A stretch of 51,837 bases of DNA from an uncultured Arcobacteraceae bacterium (GCA_964022095.1 CAXHZO010000017.1:1-51837), one strand, 5' to 3'. Shown: positions 4,126-12,749, counted from the stretch's first letter. Notes: a model not told the origin generated them from the sequence alone. Made by a program: numbers and translations.

Positions 4126-4965
4126 TTGACAAAAAACATTATATCGACTCTTATATTATTAGCGGTTTTTATCTCACTTACTTTTTTTGCAATAACTTCA
4201 TATACAAGTGCAAAAGACTATGAAACAAGTTATAAACAATATGCCCAAGAACAAACTATCACAAGCAGTGTAGAAGAAAATACAAAAGAGATGTTAAATG
4301 GTTTTATTGGAGCAATTCTAGGACAAAAACCAAATACAAACAAAGATGAAGTATCATCAAAAAAACAAGAACTAGAGAATCTAAAAGAAAAACCAATAGA
4401 ATATCTAATCATCTTTGCAAGTATAATTGCCCTATCCCTTCTTAGCTTTTTTATAGTTTCTAAAAAAGTCTTTCTTACATACTTACATAGTGTGACATTA
4501 CTTAGTTTGGTATTTGGTCTTATTAGTCCTGTATTTATGATGTATATTTTACTTGACTATAATTTTCAAAATATAGTAACTATAAAAGATGCAATATTAC
4601 AATTTGAATCTCTTAGTATATTAGAGTCTATAAACAAACTTATAAATATCCAAGAAAAATACTTCGTAGGAGTAGTTATCTTGCTTTTTTCAGTAATTTT
4701 TCCTCTTATTAAAACCCTACTTTCGTTTGCAAATGTTTTTATAAATCATTTACCACTTCTAAATAAAAGTACAAAACTACTTTCAGCTTTTAGCAAATGG
4801 TCTATGACAGATGTATTTGTATTATCAATATTTTTAGTATATCTTTCATCAGTAAATAGTGGAATATCAAAAATAGTGACAGAGATTGAAGTTGGGTTTT
4901 ATTTCTTTTTTATATATGTGATTTTATCTATCATTCTTAGTTTTTTTAATAAGATTAAAGTTTGA
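4126..4965 (+). CDS. Paraquat-inducible protein A (PqiA)-family membrane protein
   Basis: Multiple TMs, FSVIFPLIK and KWSMTDVF motifs. Confidence 0.8.
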   Translation: MTKNIISTLILLAVFISLTFFAITSYTSAKDYETSYKQYAQEQTITSSVEENTKEMLNGFIGAILGQKPNTNKDEVSSKKQELENLKEKPIEYLIIFASIIALSLLSFFIVSKKVFLTYLHSVTLLSLVFGLISPVFMMYILLDYNFQNIVTIKDAILQFESLSILESINKLINIQEKYFVGVVILLFSVIFPLIKTLLSFANVFINHLPLLNKSTKLLSAFSKWSMTDVFVLSIFLVYLSSVNSGISKIVTEIEVGFYFFFIYVILSIILSFFNKIKV

Positions 4966-5548
4966 ATATCATTGTTGATGAACCACTAAAACCAAGGAAA
5001 TCTTTTAAAAAAGAATAGCTTTCAGTTTTTACAGTTTCAAAACCCACACGCTCATAGAGTTTTTTAGCTTTAGGGTTTATATCAATAACATCTAGTCGAA
5101 TTTGACTAAACCCTTGAGTTTTAGCTAGCTTTTTTATTTCACTAAGAAGTTTACTGCCTATGCCTTTACCTCGTCCCCAAGAACAAACAGAGATACCATC
5201 CATAACAAGCTCTCTTGGTTTTGGTTTTCTTTCATACAAACTAAATATTATGGCTGCCCAATTCCCCTTAATAATCCCTAATTGTGATAATAAATCACTA
5301 TATCCAATACCACTAGTTAAAGATCCCTCAGGTGTTTGGTAACCAGCAATACCTATTAGTTTTTCATCATAAAAAGCACCAATCGCATACTTTAGGATTA
5401 GTGAACTATTTAAAATATTCAGTCTCTTTTTTTTATCTTTAATTGCAATGCCTAATTTTTTACCAAAAGCTTCTTCATATAACTCTACTGCTGATTCTCT
5501 AAACTGTTCTGGTATTCCAATTTGGTATGAAACTTCGTTATCTTTCAT
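4955..5548 (-). CDS. GNAT-family N-acetyltransferase (distal end of the cassette array)
   Basis: GRGKGIG acetyl-CoA motif, NPKAKKLYERVGF. Confidence 0.88.
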   Translation of the reverse strand: MKDNEVSYQIGIPEQFRESAVELYEEAFGKKLGIAIKDKKKRLNILNSSLILKYAIGAFYDEKLIGIAGYQTPEGSLTSGIGYSDLLSQLGIIKGNWAAIIFSLYERKPKPRELVMDGISVCSWGRGKGIGSKLLSEIKKLAKTQGFSQIRLDVIDINPKAKKLYERVGFETVKTESYSFLKDFLGFSGSSTMIFKL

Positions 5549-5960
5549 TTTGATCCAGTTTTGTTATGATGTCTTGTGTTTTGGTATTTAGTACTTCAAT
5601 ATTTATATCATATGCTTTCTTAACTTGAGTTATGATTTTGCTGTTTTCACAAATCACTTGAATACTACTGTTTGTTTTCCACGAATATTCTAGTGACTTA
5701 CAGTAACCTGCAAATATTAGATAACCTTCTTTTGGAAAATTGATGGTATTTTTCTTTGTAAGAATTAATTCACTACCATATGGAGCATGACCAGTTTCTG
5801 ATCTGGATTCAAATTCAAAAATCGTATATTGTTTACTTGGTGATTGTTTACTCGTTTTAAACTTGTAATCAACTCCAAGAAAAGAGTTGCTTGCAATTTT
5901 TATTACTATACACCCTCCAATAACAAGTAGTAAAATTACAATTATTAAATTTTTGTTCAA
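5538..5960 (-). CDS. Hypothetical exported/membrane-anchored protein, probable former cassette
   Basis: 140-aa ORF with N-terminal hydrophobic segment; AAGGA RBS directly after a GTTAAGA core-like site. Confidence 0.65.
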   Translation of the reverse strand: MNKNLIIVILLLVIGGCIVIKIASNSFLGVDYKFKTSKQSPSKQYTIFEFESRSETGHAPYGSELILTKKNTINFPKEGYLIFAGYCKSLEYSWKTNSSIQVICENSKIITQVKKAYDINIEVLNTKTQDIITKLDQNER

Positions 5961-5971
5961 ATTAAAATCCT

Positions 5972-5996
5972 TCTTAACTCAAATGTTATGTTATAC
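5972..5996 (-). repeat. Collapsed (internally deleted) attC remnant
   Basis: Minus strand GTATAAC-ATAACATTTGA-GTTAAGA. The R'' matches the cassette's own entry core GTTATAC (6400-6406), but there are no L boxes and no stem. Confidence 0.6.
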
Positions 5997-6380
5997 ATCT
6001 ACTTTATAATTTAGTTTAATCTCATCGCCTGTCATACCTCTAAAACCCCAATTTGAAGCTGGACTTTCAATAATACAAATTTCTAAATCATTATTTTCTA
6101 TATTAAGCTCTTGTCTAATACTCTTAAACAATGACTTTATTAAATCTTTTTTTGTTTCTGTCTCTCGACCTTCTATCATCATAATCTCAATTATAGTATA
6201 TTGTTTGCTTTTATCAGCAGGAAATATCATCTCATCTTCATTGAGGGATATAAACCTATGATATTTTTTATCTTTAGGAAATGATAATATTTCAACTATT
6301 GCTGAATGTATAGTTTCTGATAATTTTTGTTTAATATTATCAAGATTATCTTTTAATCCATAGACTTTAACTTGTGCCAA
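5991..6380 (-). CDS. Tautomerase-superfamily protein (YrdN-like), cassette 6
   Basis: Beta-alpha-beta pattern, IIEIMMIEGR..ETKK.LI, NWGFRG; stop codon lies within R''. Confidence 0.85.
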   Translation of the reverse strand: MAQVKVYGLKDNLDNIKQKLSETIHSAIVEILSFPKDKKYHRFISLNEDEMIFPADKSKQYTIIEIMMIEGRETETKKDLIKSLFKSIRQELNIENNDLEICIIESPASNWGFRGMTGDEIKLNYKVDV

Positions 6381-6399
6381 GAGTTTGTTCCTTTCTTAA

Positions 6400-6468
6400 G
6401 TATAACGTTTAAAATGAGCCAATAAATTGCCCGCAGGGTAATTTATTGGCTCCACTGGTTTGTTAGGA
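6400..6468 (-). repeat. attC site (69 bp)
   Basis: TCCTAAC-AAACC-AGTGGAGC...GCTCATT-TTAAAC-GTTATAC; 17-bp inner stem with one G.T pair and a 3-nt loop. Confidence 0.92.
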
Positions 6469-6469
6469 T

Positions 6470-7654
6470 TTATAGCCATTCACCATCCATTTTTTTAACT
6501 CTAAATGTTTTCGCAAAGTCCATAATAATCTCATTGTTAGTTAACTGCAACCACTTGTTAAAACTTTTTATAAGTAAACTAATTATACCTGCATATTTAT
6601 CTAGATACTTTTCTTCTAATTTATAAAAATTTGTTAAATTTTCAACGTTACCAGAATAAAAATCACCTAGATTAGCAACTTGTCCATGAGTATCATCTAT
6701 TTTTTTCATTAATAAGTATCTTTTATTAAAATTATTATCCTCTGTGACTTTAGAGCTATGTACTACATAAAAACCTGTTTTCTTTTCATCAAGTTTAACT
6801 AATAGTTTAGAAAAATAGTTTGTTTTAATCTTATCATATTCAGAAAACCATTCATATATATCAATTAATGAATTTAATATTTCACGATTATAGTATTGAG
6901 AACCCATTGCTTGATTTACAAATGAGTAAAACTTTTTTTCATGTTCATGAAAACTTTTTAGAATATCAAAACCTAGAATCTTTTTATCTCTTAAAATTTC
7001 TATTATTCCTGATTTGTCTAAATTAATAAATGCAGTTGTATTGTCAAAAAAGTTATCACTGTTAGGTTTATTTATAAAACGTACTAAATGGGAAATAAGC
7101 ATTAGCATTTCTTGGTCAATTTCTTTTTTTAGAAAATCTAAAATTTTATCTGTTAAAATCCCTTTAGATTGCATTTCTGTAATTGATTTTTTAATTTGAT
7201 GGGATAGACTTCTTTTAATATCACTCTTCACATGATCTTTTAAACTATAGGGCATTATTCTTCTATTTCTTAAATCAAATGGCAAATCATCAAAGCTTCC
7301 AAAGTCAGTATTATATATACAAATAATTTTTTCCCAGCCTAATGTTCTTGCTGCATATCCTAGTTCAATTAATACATTGGGATTTGGAGTTTTTCTAATA
7401 CTTTCATCTGAACTATTAACTATGGATATATCAGCAACAAAAACACTGCTATTACTTATTTTACTAAATATAGACTCTGTAATATCAGGAGAACCTGTAT
7501 CTTCTCTTGTTGCCCTATCAATATTTATATTGATAGGGATAGGTTGAATTTTCTTGAGTTCTTTTGTTGCTAAGATAATGCTGTCCTCAATAAAAGTCCA
7601 ATTAGTTTTATTTGGTAAATCAGATTGCCATGAATAAAATATCGTTCTTTTCAA
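6470..7654 (-). CDS. Protein with N-terminal TIR-like/nucleoside-deoxyribosyltransferase-like domain and helical C-terminus, cassette 5
   Basis: IFYSWQSD, GSPDI..IF.KI, FVADIS, PNPNVLIELGYA, LPFDLR motifs. Confidence 0.7.
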   Translation of the reverse strand: MKRTIFYSWQSDLPNKTNWTFIEDSIILATKELKKIQPIPININIDRATREDTGSPDITESIFSKISNSSVFVADISIVNSSDESIRKTPNPNVLIELGYAARTLGWEKIICIYNTDFGSFDDLPFDLRNRRIMPYSLKDHVKSDIKRSLSHQIKKSITEMQSKGILTDKILDFLKKEIDQEMLMLISHLVRFINKPNSDNFFDNTTAFINLDKSGIIEILRDKKILGFDILKSFHEHEKKFYSFVNQAMGSQYYNREILNSLIDIYEWFSEYDKIKTNYFSKLLVKLDEKKTGFYVVHSSKVTEDNNFNKRYLLMKKIDDTHGQVANLGDFYSGNVENLTNFYKLEEKYLDKYAGIISLLIKSFNKWLQLTNNEIIMDFAKTFRVKKMDGEWL

Positions 7655-7671
7655 TTTATTATTTCCTTATA

Positions 7672-7741
7672 TCCTAACGTTTGTCGTGAGCAATAATTTT
7701 CCCGCTAGGGTAAATTATTGGTCTCCTCGTACTTGTTAGCT
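7672..7741 (-). repeat. attC site (70 bp)
   Basis: AGCTAAC-AAGTA-CGAGGAGA...GCTCACG-ACAAAC-GTTAGGA; imperfect inner stem AATAATTTACCC/GGGAAAATTATT. Confidence 0.88.
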
Positions 7742-7753
7742 TTGTGTGTCAAA

Positions 7754-8401
7754 CTAGTTAATTTTAATAAGTACTTGTTCTTCAATAGATTTTGAAATTA
7801 TAACCATTAAGACAAATGTAAACTTTAGGTACTCTTCACCAACAACTCTTTTATTCCCTATGTTTAGATTACTATCTTCATTTATTTTTAAATATGTTTT
7901 ATTAACTAATCCATTATTATGAAGGATGATATTTCGAGTACTAAATAATTCAATAATATTTACTTTCCACTTTTCAATATCTGGAAAAACTAAATTAAAT
8001 TCTTTTGCAAGGTGTTTTAATTTATCGTTAAACGATGAGTGTGAAAATCTTAAAATAATTTTTTCTCTCTTTTCTTCTTCCAAAGAAGGCTTTTTCCATA
8101 GATAAATTGATTTAACAATATCATTTAAGAAAGCATCTGTTCTAGCAATTAAATTGATAAAGCAGTATTTATATATTTCTAATTCGTAAGTACTTACGGA
8201 CTCTTGTAGGTTTTCAAATATTTTCATCCCTTCAATTTCTTCTGCACTTCTTTCTTTATTGTTAAACTCTTTTAATATCTCAGGGTATTTATCTTTAAAG
8301 AAGCCATATGAAGTACGAGTACCCGTTAGAAACTGGTCTATACTTAGAACATCTTTTTTAAAGTCAGTAATATTTTTTTCTATATATTCTTGTATATTCA
8401 C
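7754..8401 (-). CDS. HEPN-like domain protein, cassette 4
   Basis: All-helical, RNIILH (Rx4H) motif followed by NNG; GTG start with AGGAG RBS. Confidence 0.6.
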   Translation of the reverse strand: MNIQEYIEKNITDFKKDVLSIDQFLTGTRTSYGFFKDKYPEILKEFNNKERSAEEIEGMKIFENLQESVSTYELEIYKYCFINLIARTDAFLNDIVKSIYLWKKPSLEEEKREKIILRFSHSSFNDKLKHLAKEFNLVFPDIEKWKVNIIELFSTRNIILHNNGLVNKTYLKINEDSNLNIGNKRVVGEEYLKFTFVLMVIISKSIEEQVLIKIN

Positions 8402-8417
8402 TATAAGTCTCCTATGA

Positions 8418-8485
8418 AGCTAACGTTTGAATAGAGCGAATAAGTAACCGCTAGGTAACTTATTCGCTCCTATATTTTGTTATGT
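8418..8485 (-). repeat. attC site (68 bp)
   Basis: ACATAAC-AAAAT-ATAGGAGC...GCTCTAT-TCAAAC-GTTAGCT; L''/L' pair perfectly apart from one extra base. Confidence 0.92.
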
Positions 8486-8962
8486 ATTTATTGTAGTCAG
8501 TTTCAACTGTAAAATTTCTTCATCAGTTAATAATCTATCTTGAGTAATTGCAAACTTTATTGCACCAACTTGTTTTGCTAGTTCTTGTAATAAAAAAATC
8601 TCGCTTTGTTTTATTGCTTTTTGAGATTTTTTGTCAATATAAAATATCAGATGAAATCCTAAAAATCCAAATTTTCTATGAGACATTATATTTTGAATTA
8701 AATATAATATCATTGTTCGTGCAAAATCAATATCATCAAAAATAATTTCATTTGTTTTAAATGGATTGAAAATTTCACAATCTTGATGTTGCTGAACATT
8801 TTCTCCAATAGCTATAACAATGTCATTTTTAATTGCTATTTTTGAAGAAATAGAAATTGATGTATTTCTTTCAATATATTTCAAATGAAGCATTTCATTT
8901 TCAATAGCAAGATAAAATGTTTTTTTTAAAAATTTTGATATTAGAAATGTTGTTAAATCCAT
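8480..8962 (-). CDS. Short MreB-related (YjaA-like) protein, cassette 3
   Basis: IAIGE...NPF...IIFDD.DFA..M..Y.I and SE...LQELA.QVGA resemble the N-terminal lobe of MreB. Start moved to ATG 8962 (AGAGGA RBS) because the longer ORF runs into the attC. Confidence 0.6.
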   Translation of the reverse strand: MDLTTFLISKFLKKTFYLAIENEMLHLKYIERNTSISISSKIAIKNDIVIAIGENVQQHQDCEIFNPFKTNEIIFDDIDFARTMILYLIQNIMSHRKFGFLGFHLIFYIDKKSQKAIKQSEIFLLQELAKQVGAIKFAITQDRLLTDEEILQLKLTTINT

Positions 8963-8976
8963 TTTAATCCTCTTTG

Positions 8977-9107
8977 ACATAACGGTTGAGTTAAGTGGAC
9001 GAGGGTACTTGAACACTTGATTGTTTGAACTAAATTTTAACTTTTTTAGGCTTTAAAGCTTAAATTACCGCAAGTATACCCTCGTTCACTTCTAGGATTT
9101 GTTAAAC
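8977..9107 (-). repeat. Long attC site (131 bp)
   Basis: GTTTAAC-AAATC-CTAGAAGT-GAACGAGGGTATACTTG...CAAGTACCCTCGTCC-ACTTAAC-TCAACC-GTTATGT. Confidence 0.85.
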
Positions 9108-9114
9108 AACTGTG

Positions 9115-9699
9115 TTAGCGACTACAACCTCCAAACAACTTCCAACATTCACTAATTATTGTTTCTTCCATTTCTCTTGCTAACTTTGAATATTCTTCTG
9201 CTTCATCATATGAAATTTCAAAAGAAATTTCATGAACAGCTTGATTTCTTAATTGTTGCAATTTATGAATAATCTTAATTTCTTCTTTTTGTAAAACTTG
9301 TTTATCTTCATAAAGTTTTAAAACTTTCATTAACGGTAGATGCTTGTCTGAATCAATAATTTTGTAATGTTTTGCATTACTGAATGCAGTAAATTCTAAA
9401 GCAATCCAAGATTCTACAATAATTGTTCTTGGTGAAGTTTCTAAAGTGTCTTTATTAACATATGCATTATTTGTATTTGTTATAGTTTCTGTGGGTTGTT
9501 CTTTTTTCAATTTGTCTTTTTCATTTTTTAGTTCTTCTAATTCTTTACCAAATTCTATTTCTAATTCACCATATTTAAATTTACTTGTATAAGGAATTAG
9601 TTTTTTTATATAATCTTTTAGCCACCAAACAATTATCACTATTGAAATAGGCCAAGCAATTGAGTCAACTAATGATGAGAAAAATGTTAACCAATCCAT
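9115..9699 (-). CDS. Membrane-anchored protein with C-terminal HEPN-like domain, cassette 2
   Basis: N-terminal hydrophobic helices (AWP), coiled coil, LRNQAVH (Rx4H) motif. Confidence 0.6.
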   Translation of the reverse strand: MDWLTFFSSLVDSIAWPISIVIIVWWLKDYIKKLIPYTSKFKYGELEIEFGKELEELKNEKDKLKKEQPTETITNTNNAYVNKDTLETSPRTIIVESWIALEFTAFSNAKHYKIIDSDKHLPLMKVLKLYEDKQVLQKEEIKIIHKLQQLRNQAVHEISFEISYDEAEEYSKLAREMEETIISECWKLFGGCSR

Positions 9700-9716
9700 A
9701 TTTATTAATTTCCTTT

Positions 9717-9785
9717 GTTTAACGTTTGAAATGAGCTAATAAATTACCCACAGGGTAATTTATTAGCTCCACTGATTTGTTATGT
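9717..9785 (-). repeat. attC site (69 bp)
   Basis: ACATAAC-AAATC-AGTGGAGC...GCTCATT-TCAAAC-GTTAAAC; perfect 17-bp inner stem; 60/69 identical to the site at 6400-6468. Confidence 0.93.
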
Positions 9786-10370
9786 AGGTTCTTCAATCAT
9801 ACTAGGAAATTCATAAACAAACTTAAGCAGCATTTCAACAAAAACTAAAAGTTCTTTGGCGTCTGTAGCATTCATCAATTGAATCTCATGAGTTGCTTCA
9901 TTACCTTTTTTCCTTATATGGTCAACCCAGTGTCTACCATTTGGGGGAATAAATCCAGCATCTGAAAGATAATTTACATATTCAATGAACCGCTTACCCT
10001 CGTCTGCTCCTTGATTAACAGCAATATTCATCAAAATTTTTCTGCAAATTAATACAGATGCGGTAAAACAACTTTGTCCCGTGCATTTTCTCGCTTCATC
10101 ATATAATTTTGATAGTTCATCGGGTACATTTCCAACGGAATTACCCATAATGGATTGGGGAAATTGCTGACCAGATGGCGTGATAAAAATTATTCCACCA
10201 CAACTAGGACATATATATGCGGCTCCATTCTGTGATCCACTTCCATCACTATGTAACCCAATTTTTAGCCCTTTTTCTGAAGAAACTTTGTCTCCACAAT
10301 ATCCACATTTAAAAGATAGAACATTTAATTGTTGTGGTTTATACCAATTACTTCCATTTAAAAAATTCAT
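9780..10370 (-). CDS. DUF4145 (HEPN-superfamily) protein with N-terminal CxxC...CxxC zinc ribbon, cassette 1
   Basis: CGYC and CPSC, LYDEARKC..SCFTASVLICRKILM, IRKKGNEATH. Confidence 0.78.
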   Translation of the reverse strand: MNFLNGSNWYKPQQLNVLSFKCGYCGDKVSSEKGLKIGLHSDGSGSQNGAAYICPSCGGIIFITPSGQQFPQSIMGNSVGNVPDELSKLYDEARKCTGQSCFTASVLICRKILMNIAVNQGADEGKRFIEYVNYLSDAGFIPPNGRHWVDHIRKKGNEATHEIQLMNATDAKELLVFVEMLLKFVYEFPSMIEEPT

Positions 10371-10576
10371 TTTTCTACTTTAGACAACATAATAGATTTG
10401 AAAACTTTTTCTTTAACCTCTTTCCCTGAAAACCATTGACAGACAACATCTCCATCATCAAACCCTTGTAATTTAAACATATCATCATGATGACCATTAC
10501 CAACGACATAAGAAACTGTCATTTTTTCTCCACCAGAATTAAGTTGAACCACATCGCCTTCTTTTAATACACTCAT
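10367..10576 (-). CDS. YodC/DUF2158-family small protein, cassette 1
   Basis: GDVVQLNSGG.KMTV...CQWF motif; AGGAGG RBS; ATGA overlap with the next gene. Confidence 0.82.
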   Translation of the reverse strand: MSVLKEGDVVQLNSGGEKMTVSYVVGNGHHDDMFKLQGFDDGDVVCQWFSGKEVKEKVFKSIMLSKVEK

Positions 10577-10599
10577 TGTTTCCTCCTACTTAAATTTAT

Positions 10600-10618
10600 A
10601 CATAACTATTTATTAGTA
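10600..10618 (-). other. Putative attI-like recombination site at the head of the array
   Basis: TACTAAT-AAATA-G|TTATGT (degenerate L box, 5-bp spacer, core); core complements R'' at 9779-9786; no attC stem upstream. Confidence 0.6.
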
Positions 10619-10622
10619 ATAC

Positions 10623-10656
10623 ATTATATATTAATTACCCATAAAATTACTTAATA
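10623..10656 (-). promoter_or_regulatory. Putative cassette promoter (Pc-like), copy 1 of a 34-bp direct repeat
   Basis: Minus strand TATTAAGTAATTTTATGGGTAATTAATATATAAT ends in TATAAT, 16 bp upstream of the crossover G. Confidence 0.55.
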
Positions 10657-10846
10657 GTAATACATTTTTAATGTTATGACATCAAGTTAGACAAAGCCCT
10701 ATAAATAGGCTTATTTTAATAAAATATAAAATATTATATCAAAATAAATAATATTTTTTATCGTATTTTATATGTTTAATATAGTTATTTTTGCAAGATT
10801 ATTAACATATATCCTTAATAGTTTATCAAGATATCTTAGCTATATT

Positions 10847-11212
10847 TTAAACCCAAACATCCTCTTCTGCAGTTAGTTCACTATCTGTATCACCTGTATT
10901 AACAACACCTTTTGGCTCTACAATCATAATTTTACATTCACTACTAGCTACAGGTTTGTGTTCTACTCCTTTTGGAATCACAAACATCTCACCCGAATCT
11001 AAACTAACTGACCCATCACGGAACTCAATATTAAGTGTGCCTTCTATGACAATAAAAACCTCATCAGTATCAGTATGTTCATGCCAAACAAATTCACCTT
11101 CAACTTTTACTAACTTAAACTGATAATCGTTCATTTCTGCAATAACACGAGGTGACCAGTGTTCAGTAAACTTTGAAAATTTATCTTTAAAATTTATTGT
11201 ATCAAACTTCAT
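10847..11212 (-). CDS. Cupin-domain protein
   Basis: [13 protein letters not shown] and IPKGVEHKP cupin motifs. Confidence 0.9.
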
Positions 11213-11248
11213 TTTAACTCCATAATTTAATCTATTAATTTATAATAT

Positions 11249-11282
11249 ATTATAAATTAACTACCCATAAAATTACTTAATA
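11249..11282 (-). promoter_or_regulatory. Putative cupin-gene promoter, copy 2 of the 34-bp direct repeat
   Basis: 32/34 identical to 10623-10656 and also ends in TATAAT on the minus strand. Confidence 0.55.
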
Positions 11283-11300
11283 TATGACAATATGTCATAT
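11282..11300. promoter_or_regulatory. Palindromic operator-like site
   Basis: ATATGACA-ATA-TGTCATAT between the divergent cupin and radA genes. Confidence 0.4.
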
Positions 11301-11399
11301 TTTTTATCTTTTTTTATATGTTTGCTATAATTTTTAAGAATATAAAGAATTAAACAAAAATGATATAAAATCACCACTAGATTTTTAAGGACAATAAAT

Positions 11400-12749
11400 A
11401 TGGCGAAGAAAAAAACATCACTTTTTGAGTGTCAGCACTGTGGAGAACAAAGTACAAAATGGCTAGGAAAATGTCCCAACTGTGGAAGTTGGGATAGTTT
11501 TATAGAATTAAACCAAGACCAGCAAGAAGTACTAAAACAAACAGCAAAGGTAGTAAACACTACTTCAAAAGCAACACCAATCACTCAAATAAAACAAGAT
11601 GATGTTACAAGATTCACATCAAATAACGACGAATTTGATTTAGTTTTAGGTGGAGGAATTGTTCCTGGTAGTTTAACACTTATTGGTGGAAGTCCAGGGG
11701 TTGGTAAATCAACACTTTTACTAAAAGTTGCAGGAGCGATTGCAGCAACAAACAAAAAAGTACTTTATGTGTCAGGTGAAGAGAGTGCTGGACAAATAAA
11801 ACTGCGAGCAAATAGACTAGAAGCAAACAGTGATAATATGTACTTACTTAGTGAAATAAAACTTGAAGAGATTCAAGATGAGCTACTAAGACAAGATTAC
11901 GAAGTATGTATTATTGATTCTATTCAAACTATTTATTCTTCAAACCTTACAAGTGCTCCAGGAAGTGTATCCCAAGTGAGAGAAATCACATTTGAACTTA
12001 TGAGAAAAGCAAAAGAATCAGATATTGCTATGTTTATTATTGGGCATATCACAAAAGATGGTTCTATCGCAGGGCCAAGAGTACTTGAACACATGGTTGA
12101 TACAGTTTTATACTTTGAAGGTGAAGCTTCAAAAGAACTTAGAATGCTAAGAGGTTTTAAAAACAGATTTGGTTCAACTTCTGAAATTGGTATTTTTGAA
12201 ATGACAGCAGAAGGACTAATAAGTGCAAAAGATATTGCTTCAAAATTCTTTGATAAATCAAAAGCCCAAGCAGGCTCAGCCCTTACAGTTTCAATGGAAG
12301 GAAGTCGTGCAATCATACTTGAAGTTCAAGCACTAGTAACAGAAAGTACATATCCAAACCCTAAAAGAAGTGCCACAGGATTTGATGCAAATAGACTTAC
12401 TATGCTATTAGCTCTATTAGAGAAAAAAATAGATTTACCACTAAACAATTATGATGTATTTATAAATATCTCAGGTGGAATAAGAATCAAAGAGAGTTCT
12501 GCAGACCTTGCCGTAATCGCTGCAATTATCTCAAGTTTTAGAGATAGACCAATTTCTAAAGAATCAGTATTTATAGGTGAAGTTTCACTAACAGGTGAGA
12601 TTAAAGATGTTTATTCATTAGATTTAAGATTAAAAGAAGCACAAGCACAAGGTATAAAAAAAGCAGTAATTGCTCAAAAACCATCACTAAAACTTGATAT
12701 AAAAACCTTCCCTGTGGATGAAGTATCAAAAATGATAGAGTTATTTTAA
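11400..12749 (+). CDS. radA: DNA repair protein RadA/Sms
   Basis: C4 zinc finger, GSPGVGKST, KNRFG motif, Lon-like C-terminus. Confidence 0.98.
   Translation: MAKKKTSLFECQHCGEQSTKWLGKCPNCGSWDSFIELNQDQQEVLKQTAKVVNTTSKATPITQIKQDDVTRFTSNNDEFDLVLGGGIVPGSLTLIGGSPGVGKSTLLLKVAGAIAATNKKVLYVSGEESAGQIKLRANRLEANSDNMYLLSEIKLEEIQDELLRQDYEVCIIDSIQTIYSSNLTSAPGSVSQVREITFELMRKAKESDIAMFIIGHITKDGSIAGPRVLEHMVDTVLYFEGEASKELRMLRGFKNRFGSTSEIGIFEMTAEGLISAKDIASKFFDKSKAQAGSALTVSMEGSRAIILEVQALVTESTYPNPKRSATGFDANRLTMLLALLEKKIDLPLNNYDVFINISGGIRIKESSADLAVIAAIISSFRDRPISKESVFIGEVSLTGEIKDVYSLDLRLKEAQAQGIKKAVIAQKPSLKLDIKTFPVDEVSKMIELF

Follow-up and report, generated by a model that had tools for sequence, protein, structure and literature searches.

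The stretch of DNA analysed here, referred to as the window, is contig C17 (51,837 nucleotides; GCA_964022095.1 CAXHZO010000017.1:1-51837) of the genome of an uncultured, Arcobacter-like marine bacterium of the Arcobacteraceae (G000), an assembly of 2,565,272 bases in 31 contigs with completeness rated 99.99%. Next to radA it carries a minus-strand array of gene cassettes separated by attC recombination sites, and this locus is very probably a cluster of attC sites lacking an integron integrase (CALIN) that arose by deletion of the integrase gene intI from a radA-adjacent chromosomal integron, with the attachment site attI retained. An earlier note on this DNA had recognised the cassette array, and its picture was incomplete in that a remnant of intI and two copies of an attI-containing platform, the complete copy A and the partial copy B, were overlooked and a last unit without attC was included.

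Integrase gene remnant upstream of radA

Regarding the integrase, the plus-strand stretch 11344-11388 comprises the last 14 codons of intI and the stop codon, 11 nt before the start codon of radA (11400-12749, plus strand; TIGR00416, 622.7 bits), which forms the conserved right-hand flank of the locus. All 14 residues of the encoded peptide are identical to the C-terminus of the intact 320-amino-acid IntI of a relative (G048). In a DNA alignment with the relatives G048, G147, G045, and G047 homology begins at about 11344, and in blastn the remnant matched intI 3' ends at many intI loci. Because the tail corresponds to the C-terminus of IntI and intact intI is found immediately upstream of radA in G048 and G147, that is, at the same position, intI was once present here and has since been deleted. 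Among 80 radA loci, intI matches upstream of radA were detected in three (full length and about 1.5 kb upstream in locus L080, partial in L113, and as fragments in L069), a short intI tail right before radA was present in seven, and G045 and G047 have their own intI deletion leaving the same tail. Given these seven tails and the deletions in G045 and G047, loss of intI at the radA site is recurrent.

No IntI was found in the 99.99%-complete assembly, in which the best score against TIGR02249, the curated integron-integrase model with a cut-off of 265 bits, was 53 bits. Neither PF00589 (Phage_integrase) nor TIGR02249 has a match on contig C17, and the four Phage_integrase open reading frames (ORFs) of the genome are confined to contigs C2 and C10, in agreement with the earlier statement that no tyrosine recombinase is encoded in the window; the profile search of the whole genome for IntI that the earlier note had recommended likewise gave nothing above the cut-off. 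Of the two possibilities that it had offered, an integrase either lost or acting in trans, loss is borne out by the 14-codon tail, while the best candidate score for a source in trans is the 53 bits given above. With 14 codons of intI left, the locus falls short of a complete integron, which comprises functional intI, attI, and cassettes; it has five attC sites and no integron integrase gene on the contig, and the designation as a CALIN made at the outset thus stands.

Candidate attI platforms

Between the array and radA the window has two copies of a platform, both on the minus strand. Platform copy A (10600-10843) comprises an attI-like site with its crossover G at 10606 and what would be the former intergenic region between intI and attI. 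These approximately 240 bp before the first cassette are 90% identical to the head of an integrase-less array in the sister species G156, and the homology stops exactly at the crossover point G|TT, beyond which the first cassettes differ. The platform of G175, located 64 nt from an intact intI, shares 89% identity with platform A, and the equivalent regions of G132, G048, and G130 share 71-76%; in all four genomes the match, covering 10600-10832, lies directly upstream of intI, at a distance of 64-76 nt. The value for G048, whose integron occupies the same chromosomal site, is 71%, and platform A may have arrived by transfer. The similarity to regions upstream of intI and the end of homology at G|TT identify 10600-10843 as a likely attI with the former intI-attI intergenic region. 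No hairpin folding of platform A was detected (z = -0.5), which agrees with the expectation for a double-stranded attI site.

Platform copy B (11232-11335) is internally deleted and consists of an attI-like core (11232-11282) and a piece equivalent to 10733-10789, as seen in an alignment with the platforms of G156, G048, G132, and G045. Its core is 88% identical to 10606-10656 over 51 nt, and its crossover reads GAT, not GTT. Searches for the platform and for IntI covered 184 genomes of the family, and the platform was detected in 59 of them, with up to five matches per genome. G048 has four platform copies (C1 2102969-2103186, 2180763-2180981, 1231339-1231558, and 2445205-2445425) and a single intI; at least two of its intI-less copies are followed by attC sites of the same type as in the window (L044, L046).

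At 10607-10680 (minus strand) the attI region of platform A has a 12-nt motif that occurs twice in direct orientation at a distance of 41 nt, and its crossover is flanked by a short inverted repeat. The site attI1 has multiple integrase-binding sites, and the arrangement of the 12-nt repeats and the inverted repeat recalls these by analogy. On the cassette strand the top-ranking promoter-like match falls at 10742-10713 (minus), and the cassettes are probably transcribed from a promoter in platform A.

attC sites

The five hairpins between and behind the cassettes are all on the minus strand: attC1 (9717-9785, 69 nt), attC2 (8977-9107, 131 nt), attC3 (8418-8485, 68 nt), attC4 (7672-7741, 70 nt), and attC5 (6400-6468, 69 nt). 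The four short sites share a 7-nt R'' ending in AAC, a 5-nt spacer, an 8-nt L'' with an extra base past the third position, a perfect or near-perfect stem, a 3-4-nt loop, a 7-nt L', a 6-nt spacer, and an R' beginning with GTT; attC2 is a long form with the outer boxes of the short sites. Folding of the bottom strands as single-stranded DNA, compared with 200 shuffles per site, gave z = -7.4 for attC1, -2.8 for attC2, -5.8 for attC3, -5.2 for attC4, and -5.5 for attC5, with perfect 17-bp stems in attC1 and attC5. The earlier count of five hairpins with attC grammar thus holds for all five, while the layout that it gave is that of the four short ones.

From these four (attC1, attC3, attC4, and attC5) the covariance model R1 was built, which scores attC1 at 92.1 bits, attC3 at 83.5 bits, and attC4 at 70.8 bits; attC2 was left out since MAFFT misplaced this long site, and R1 therefore misses attC2 and other long forms. 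Inverse core sites (R'' with AAC and R' with GTT, partly complementary) are present in all five window sites, and among 43 related sites AAC is invariant (43/43) while the letters of GTT are kept in 42, 43, and 43 sites, respectively. All five window sites have the extrahelical base of L'' at its canonical position, on the arm facing the bottom-strand AAC, and a bulge at this place is consistent with the direction in which the cassette genes are read. The extrahelical base is G on the top strand and C on the recombined bottom strand in 42 of the 43 related sites, and a second bulged base occurs in 20 of them. In an alignment of the 43 sites, which come from nine genomes and were fitted to R1, a procedure that biases towards structure, 88.5% of cells were paired and 12 of 23 pairs had changed on both sides. 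None of 500 shuffles matched the observed percentage paired, the pairs or cells changed on both sides, or the covariation score, the count of further pair types was reached by three of the 500, and slid-register controls gave 31-45% paired.

Within the whole genome, R1 matched only its four short sites and, more weakly, reverse-strand echoes of three of them. A strict-grammar script found three of the five window sites, with inner stems of 8-13 bp, and missed two; its seven further matches, with stems of 4-7 bp, compare with 14 in the reversed genome and are at noise level. No second attC cluster was found in the genome by a relaxed palindrome scan and blastn with attC2. An Rfam scan of the window gave no match, Rfam containing no attC family, and the only two terminator-like sites in a scan of 5400-11500 are both located at 11462-11494, neither at an attC hairpin. 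Since R1 is specific within the genome, finds sites family-wide, and has matches that adjoin intI on the expected side, the five hairpins are, as far as sequence can tell, genuine integron attC sites, for which recombination would be expected from their context.

The relaxed palindrome scan and blastn with attC2 did pick up six solitary TAAC...GTTA palindromes, with 10-12 bp of stem and none of them matched by R1, at C1:113862-113918, C1:290283-290363, C2:36480-36573, C2:86538-86608, C2:147114-147171, and C18:13786-13845; they could be terminators or single stray attC-like sites.

Integrons across the family

Matches to R1, which was searched for in 151 family genomes, were detected in 92. IntI above the TIGR02249 cut-off is present in 44 of the 184 family genomes, while none of 14 control genomes added to this search had a match at E <= 1e-30. 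In all six intI loci considered (G159, G045, G046, G088, G178, and G132) the R1 matches lie on the cassette side of intI and on the opposite strand. Because IntI occurs in 44 of 184 genomes and the same type of attC stands beside intI in six of six loci, the cassette system is native to Arcobacteraceae, as the earlier note had surmised. By our own tally of the IntI and R1 tables, 48 of the 92 R1-positive genomes have no IntI match at E <= 1e-30.

Cassettes and end of the array

Seven co-oriented minus-strand ORFs with leaders of about 20-30 nt had been described, and the ORF calls made here agree; the ORFs have ribosome-binding sites, are promoterless, and those of the five complete cassettes are followed by attC at the 3' end. 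Crossover G positions are 10606, 9723, 8983, 8424, 7678, and 6406, and the distances between successive GTT crossovers are 883, 740, 559, 746, and 1272 bp, which reproduces the five sizes given before; the sixth unit, of 428 bp, is not sustained, its boundary at 5973-5991 not being an attC site. Also as described, stop codons fall in or near R'', overlapping it in cassettes 1 and 3 and preceding it by 7, 12, and 1 nt in cassettes 2, 4, and 5, respectively.

Cassette 1 (10605 to 9723, 883 bp, with attC1) contains two overlapping ORFs assigned by Pfam to DUF2158 (10367-10576) and DUF4145 (9780-10370), the latter matching the PADLOC family PD-T7-4, a candidate defence protein, at 6e-8. Cassette 2 (8977-9722, 740 bp) has an ORF at 9115-9699 (194 aa) with a weak DUF4145 match and a match to phrog_18019 at 1.5e-15, followed by attC2. 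The ORF of cassette 3 (8418-8982, 559 bp) probably starts at the ATG at 8962, which has a ribosome-binding site before it, and runs to 8480, with attC3 behind it, and in cassette 4 (7672-8423, 746 bp) the ORF at 7754-8401 (215 aa) is followed by attC4. ORF families were checked in Pfam, NCBIfam, PADLOC, and PHROGs, and for the ORFs of cassettes 3 and 4 no family was found in these four collections; the latter has a sub-threshold HEPN lead from a protein atlas (0.89). Cassette 5 (6400-7677, 1272 bp) carries an ORF at 6470-7654 (394 aa) with a TIR-like N-terminus (CAP12-PCTIR_TIR at 1.6e-4, below the Pfam cut-off; its protein-atlas neighbours carry PF10137), followed by attC5. The cassettes thus look partly defence-related (DUF4145/PD-T7-4-like and TIR-like), with tentative functions, and according to PMC12614218 integron cassettes often encode phage defence. 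In G048 the first cassette behind attI (L041 10186-10332) encodes a DUF2158 protein 41% identical to the first-cassette ORF of the window.

The terminal unit (5973-6405, minus strand) has a Tautomerase-family ORF at 5991-6380 (Tautomerase_2, 1.5e-22) and no attC. Its end, the 19-nt arm-like stretch 5973-5991, is 89% complementary to the L'-R' arm of attC2; as a candidate sixth attC this stretch was rejected for lack of folding (z = +0.8). Two further co-oriented ORFs (4955-5960, minus strand), a 140-aa ORF without family and a GNAT acetyltransferase, separate the array from the conserved flank, and R1 detected no attC in this interval. A GNAT gene next to the array was found in one of the 184 family genomes, that of the window itself. 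The two accessory ORFs may be decayed cassettes.

Regarding past mobility, cassette 5 is present in only four of the 184 family genomes. In one of these, G095, which belongs to another genus, the DNA is 87.7% identical over 6401-7682, that is, from crossover point to crossover point, the cassette is followed by attC, and an attI-like core lies about 540 bp upstream. This homology shows past mobility of cassette 5 between genera. Comparison of the locus across relatives, which the earlier note had also proposed, revealed that gene order is not invariant: both flanks of the locus are present in G156, the left one as far as 4958 and the right one starting at 11400, and what stands between them there, a YoeB/YefM pair, an insertion sequence, and a PLD-helicase, is unrelated to the genes of the window and includes no attC. 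Its attI-headed array is located elsewhere and has different cassettes, namely a kinase gene split by this same insertion sequence, a PIN-domain gene, and a ParE-type gene. One 454-aa DDE transposase ORF, with identical Pfam scores, occurs twice in G156 (L033 11511-12875 and L040 1852-3216), one copy splitting the kinase cassette at the array head and the other standing at the radA-adjacent site that is syntenic with the window array; in this species the integron may have been relocated or disrupted by an insertion sequence.

Cupin unit between the platforms

A cupin-domain gene (10847-11212, minus strand; Pfam Cupin_2, E = 4e-11) without attC lies between platforms B and A, its stop codon 3 nt from the distal end of platform A. 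Relatives of the cupin occur in 10 of the 184 family genomes; in five of their loci (L049-L053) neither an R1 match nor attI homology was found, and in four of these (L049-L052) DNA homology was found that is confined to the ORF. An ordinary cassette was considered for the cupin and rejected, since it has no attC and its relatives elsewhere stand outside cassettes.

Similar layouts were found in other genomes of the family. In G151 two platform copies lie about 1 kb apart with an ORF 12-17 nt after each, G154 has three attI-like cores within 4.5 kb, and G056 has two; the coordinates of these tandem cores, each with an ORF about 12-25 nt further on, are L141 4039-5387 (G151), L142 2527-7115 (G154), and L143 2580-3673 (G056). 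An attI-gene-attI layout like that of platform B, cupin, and platform A recurs in the family.

Metagenome support for the assembly

The runs flagged as a possible source of the assembly are metagenomes, and run X4 comes from another study. Contigs of X4 match without a single difference across 6403-7105, 7399-9128, 9103-9848, and 10648-11059; they cover attC1 to attC4 in the order of the assembly and extend into attC5 for only about 30 nt. From run X6 there is a contig that agrees with 11111-11403, a stretch running from the cupin gene over platform B and the intI tail into radA. Both platform junctions are thus spanned by contigs of that other study (cupin to platform A in X4; cupin through platform B to radA in X6), and these zero-difference matches over the array and the junctions support the assembly. 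X4 contigs also contain joints (such as 4958 to 6403, and attC ends to 10601-10603) whose sides are 21-30 nt long with unknown letters between them, and which are not readable as cassette loss or reordering.

In runs X4 and X6 the contig depths sum to 262-397 over an AT-rich piece of platform A (10718-10771), compared with about 5 nearby; the sequence of this piece may be common to more abundant organisms, or the depth may be a low-complexity coincidence.

Discussion

The ancestral state of the locus was very probably a sedentary chromosomal integron between a pqiA-like gene and radA, in the arrangement seen in the intact relative G048, where intI is read towards radA and has upstream of it an attI platform of about 280 bp, from which the cassettes are read away. 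In the genome of the window, intI has been deleted down to its last 14 codons and the attI platform is kept twice, as a shortened copy in place by the intI remnant and as a full copy heading the array, with the cupin gene between them. The full copy is followed by five complete cassettes, each a promoterless ORF or ORF pair with its attC, and by a sixth unit and two accessory genes without attC. Since sites cannot recombine where there is no integrase, the array would be fixed, a frozen and otherwise ordinary cluster of co-oriented genes probably read from the platform promoter. Its cassettes would become movable again only with IntI from outside or through uptake of the DNA by an IntI-bearing relative.

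Several observations sit uneasily with this account. A simple deletion of intI leaves the cupin unit and the duplicated platform unexplained, the array ends without an attC, and promoter-like matches are not enriched (38, compared with 40.2 in shuffles). The L'' extrahelical base of attC sites is usually G on the bottom strand, with a conserved T higher in the stem (Nivina et al., PMC5027507); here that base is C in 42 of 43 sites, and the perfect-stem short sites of the window have no second extrahelical T. Membership in the attC class is, moreover, judged by R1, a model built from the window sites themselves, and not by the model of IntegronFinder, and with an assembly in 31 contigs and metagenomes as possible source runs an intI on a missing contig is conceivable.

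That last point leads to the reading of the locus as a still-active integron, whose attC sites and two attI sites would be served in trans by an IntI encoded on an unassembled or unbinned part of the genome or on a plasmid. The undamaged attC stems, among which those of attC1 and attC5 are perfect, the retention of a full attI platform, the seven cassette ORFs, all of them open, and relatives such as G048 with its four attI platforms for one intI would all fit such a state, as would the fragmented assembly. It is nevertheless unlikely, as no IntI match above 53 bits exists in an assembly rated nearly complete, the cognate intI is visibly deleted, and the X4 contigs agree with the assembly in sequence and order from attC1 to attC4 and for about 30 nt of attC5, although X4 also contains the unreadable joints. 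A different doubt concerns the assembly itself: a platform repeated within 630 bp is the kind of repeat that is prone to mis-joins, and the depth of 10718-10771 in two metagenome runs is out of line with its surroundings, so that the intI deletion and the doubled platform might be artefacts of collapsed repeats or a chimeric contig. We consider this extremely improbable, given that separate zero-difference contigs bridge 10648-11059 (X4) and 11111-11403 (X6) and that similar states with only an intI tail occur at radA in other genomes.

The hairpins might also be intergenic repeats of some other kind (terminators, for example, or REP- or MITE-like elements), since they are palindromic, lie between convergently ended ORFs, and have no Rfam family. 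There is very little to be said for this, because box, spacer, and bulge geometry are exactly those of attC, the hairpins are directional and clustered only here in the genome, sites of the same type stand beside intI in relatives, inter-genus homology is bounded by cassette borders, and neither of the two terminator-like sites falls on a hairpin. Deletion of intI from a radA-adjacent integron with retention of attI is the reading preferred here.

The sedentary chromosomal integron of Vibrio cholerae has an active IntIA and an array of well over a hundred cassettes. Like the window, it is chromosomal, with homogeneous lineage-specific attC sites and cassettes that are mostly of no known function or defence-like (PMC12614218), but its VCR attC sites are 133 nt long with three extrahelical bases (PMC5027507), whereas the window has five attC sites, mostly of 68-70 nt with a single extrahelical base, and no integrase. 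Loss of the integrase has been proposed as one origin of CALINs, and only 15 of the 279 in one survey had a recognisable intI pseudogene close by (Cury et al., 2016, PMC4889954). The window resembles the CALINs of that survey in lacking a nearby intI and in having cassettes with two or more attC sites; it differs in that its 14-codon remnant is too short for the 50% profile-coverage criterion of the survey and in that it keeps the attI platform, in two copies.

Repeated lineage-specific inactivation of intI has been described for the chromosomal integrons downstream of ilvD in Xanthomonas (bioRxiv 10.1101/2025.06.18.660453), which share with the present locus a fixed site by a housekeeping gene, repeated decay of intI, and stable arrays later. 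In contrast to Xanthomonas, where intI was lost by point mutation, it was lost here by deletion, in another phylum and with radA as the anchor, which serves as such in a subset of genomes only. Regarding the cupin unit, attI-gene-attI and delta-attI-type cassettes with resistance genes are described from class 1 and class 2 mobile integrons and were shown to recombine (PMC12901181). The cupin unit is alike in being a gene bounded by two attI-type sites and lacking attC, but it is chromosomal, and its downstream site is a whole 240-bp platform. Campylobacterota are listed among the integron-bearing phyla (PMC8618304). No description of native Arcobacter or Arcobacteraceae integrons was found in the literature, the supplementary tables of IntegronFinder, which possibly list such genomes, being outside the search. 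The kind of element is already known, decay of this sort is a familiar and frequent fate of integrons, and integrons are already listed for the phylum; the discovery is modest.

The locus nonetheless provides a clean, base-resolved example of the decay of a chromosomal integron outside the Gammaproteobacteria, in which the integrase has been deleted while the docking site, the promoter region, and the cassette sites stayed intact. It also offers a resource for the study of site recognition by integron integrases, with a family-specific set of attC and attI sites in which the extrahelical base is unusual and the platforms are repeated, and with a cassette common to different genera. More speculatively, and with a low probability in our view, Arcobacteraceae integrons may use a dialect of their own, marked by a single near-invariant extrahelical C and by a platform of about 230 bp that is multiplied and outlives intI, in which case integrase-less arrays might stay competent as docking and donor sites for a trans-acting integrase in the community and would not be dead remnants. 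Within Arcobacteraceae the locus is an ordinary one, and arrays without an integrase are roughly as frequent in this family as complete integrons.

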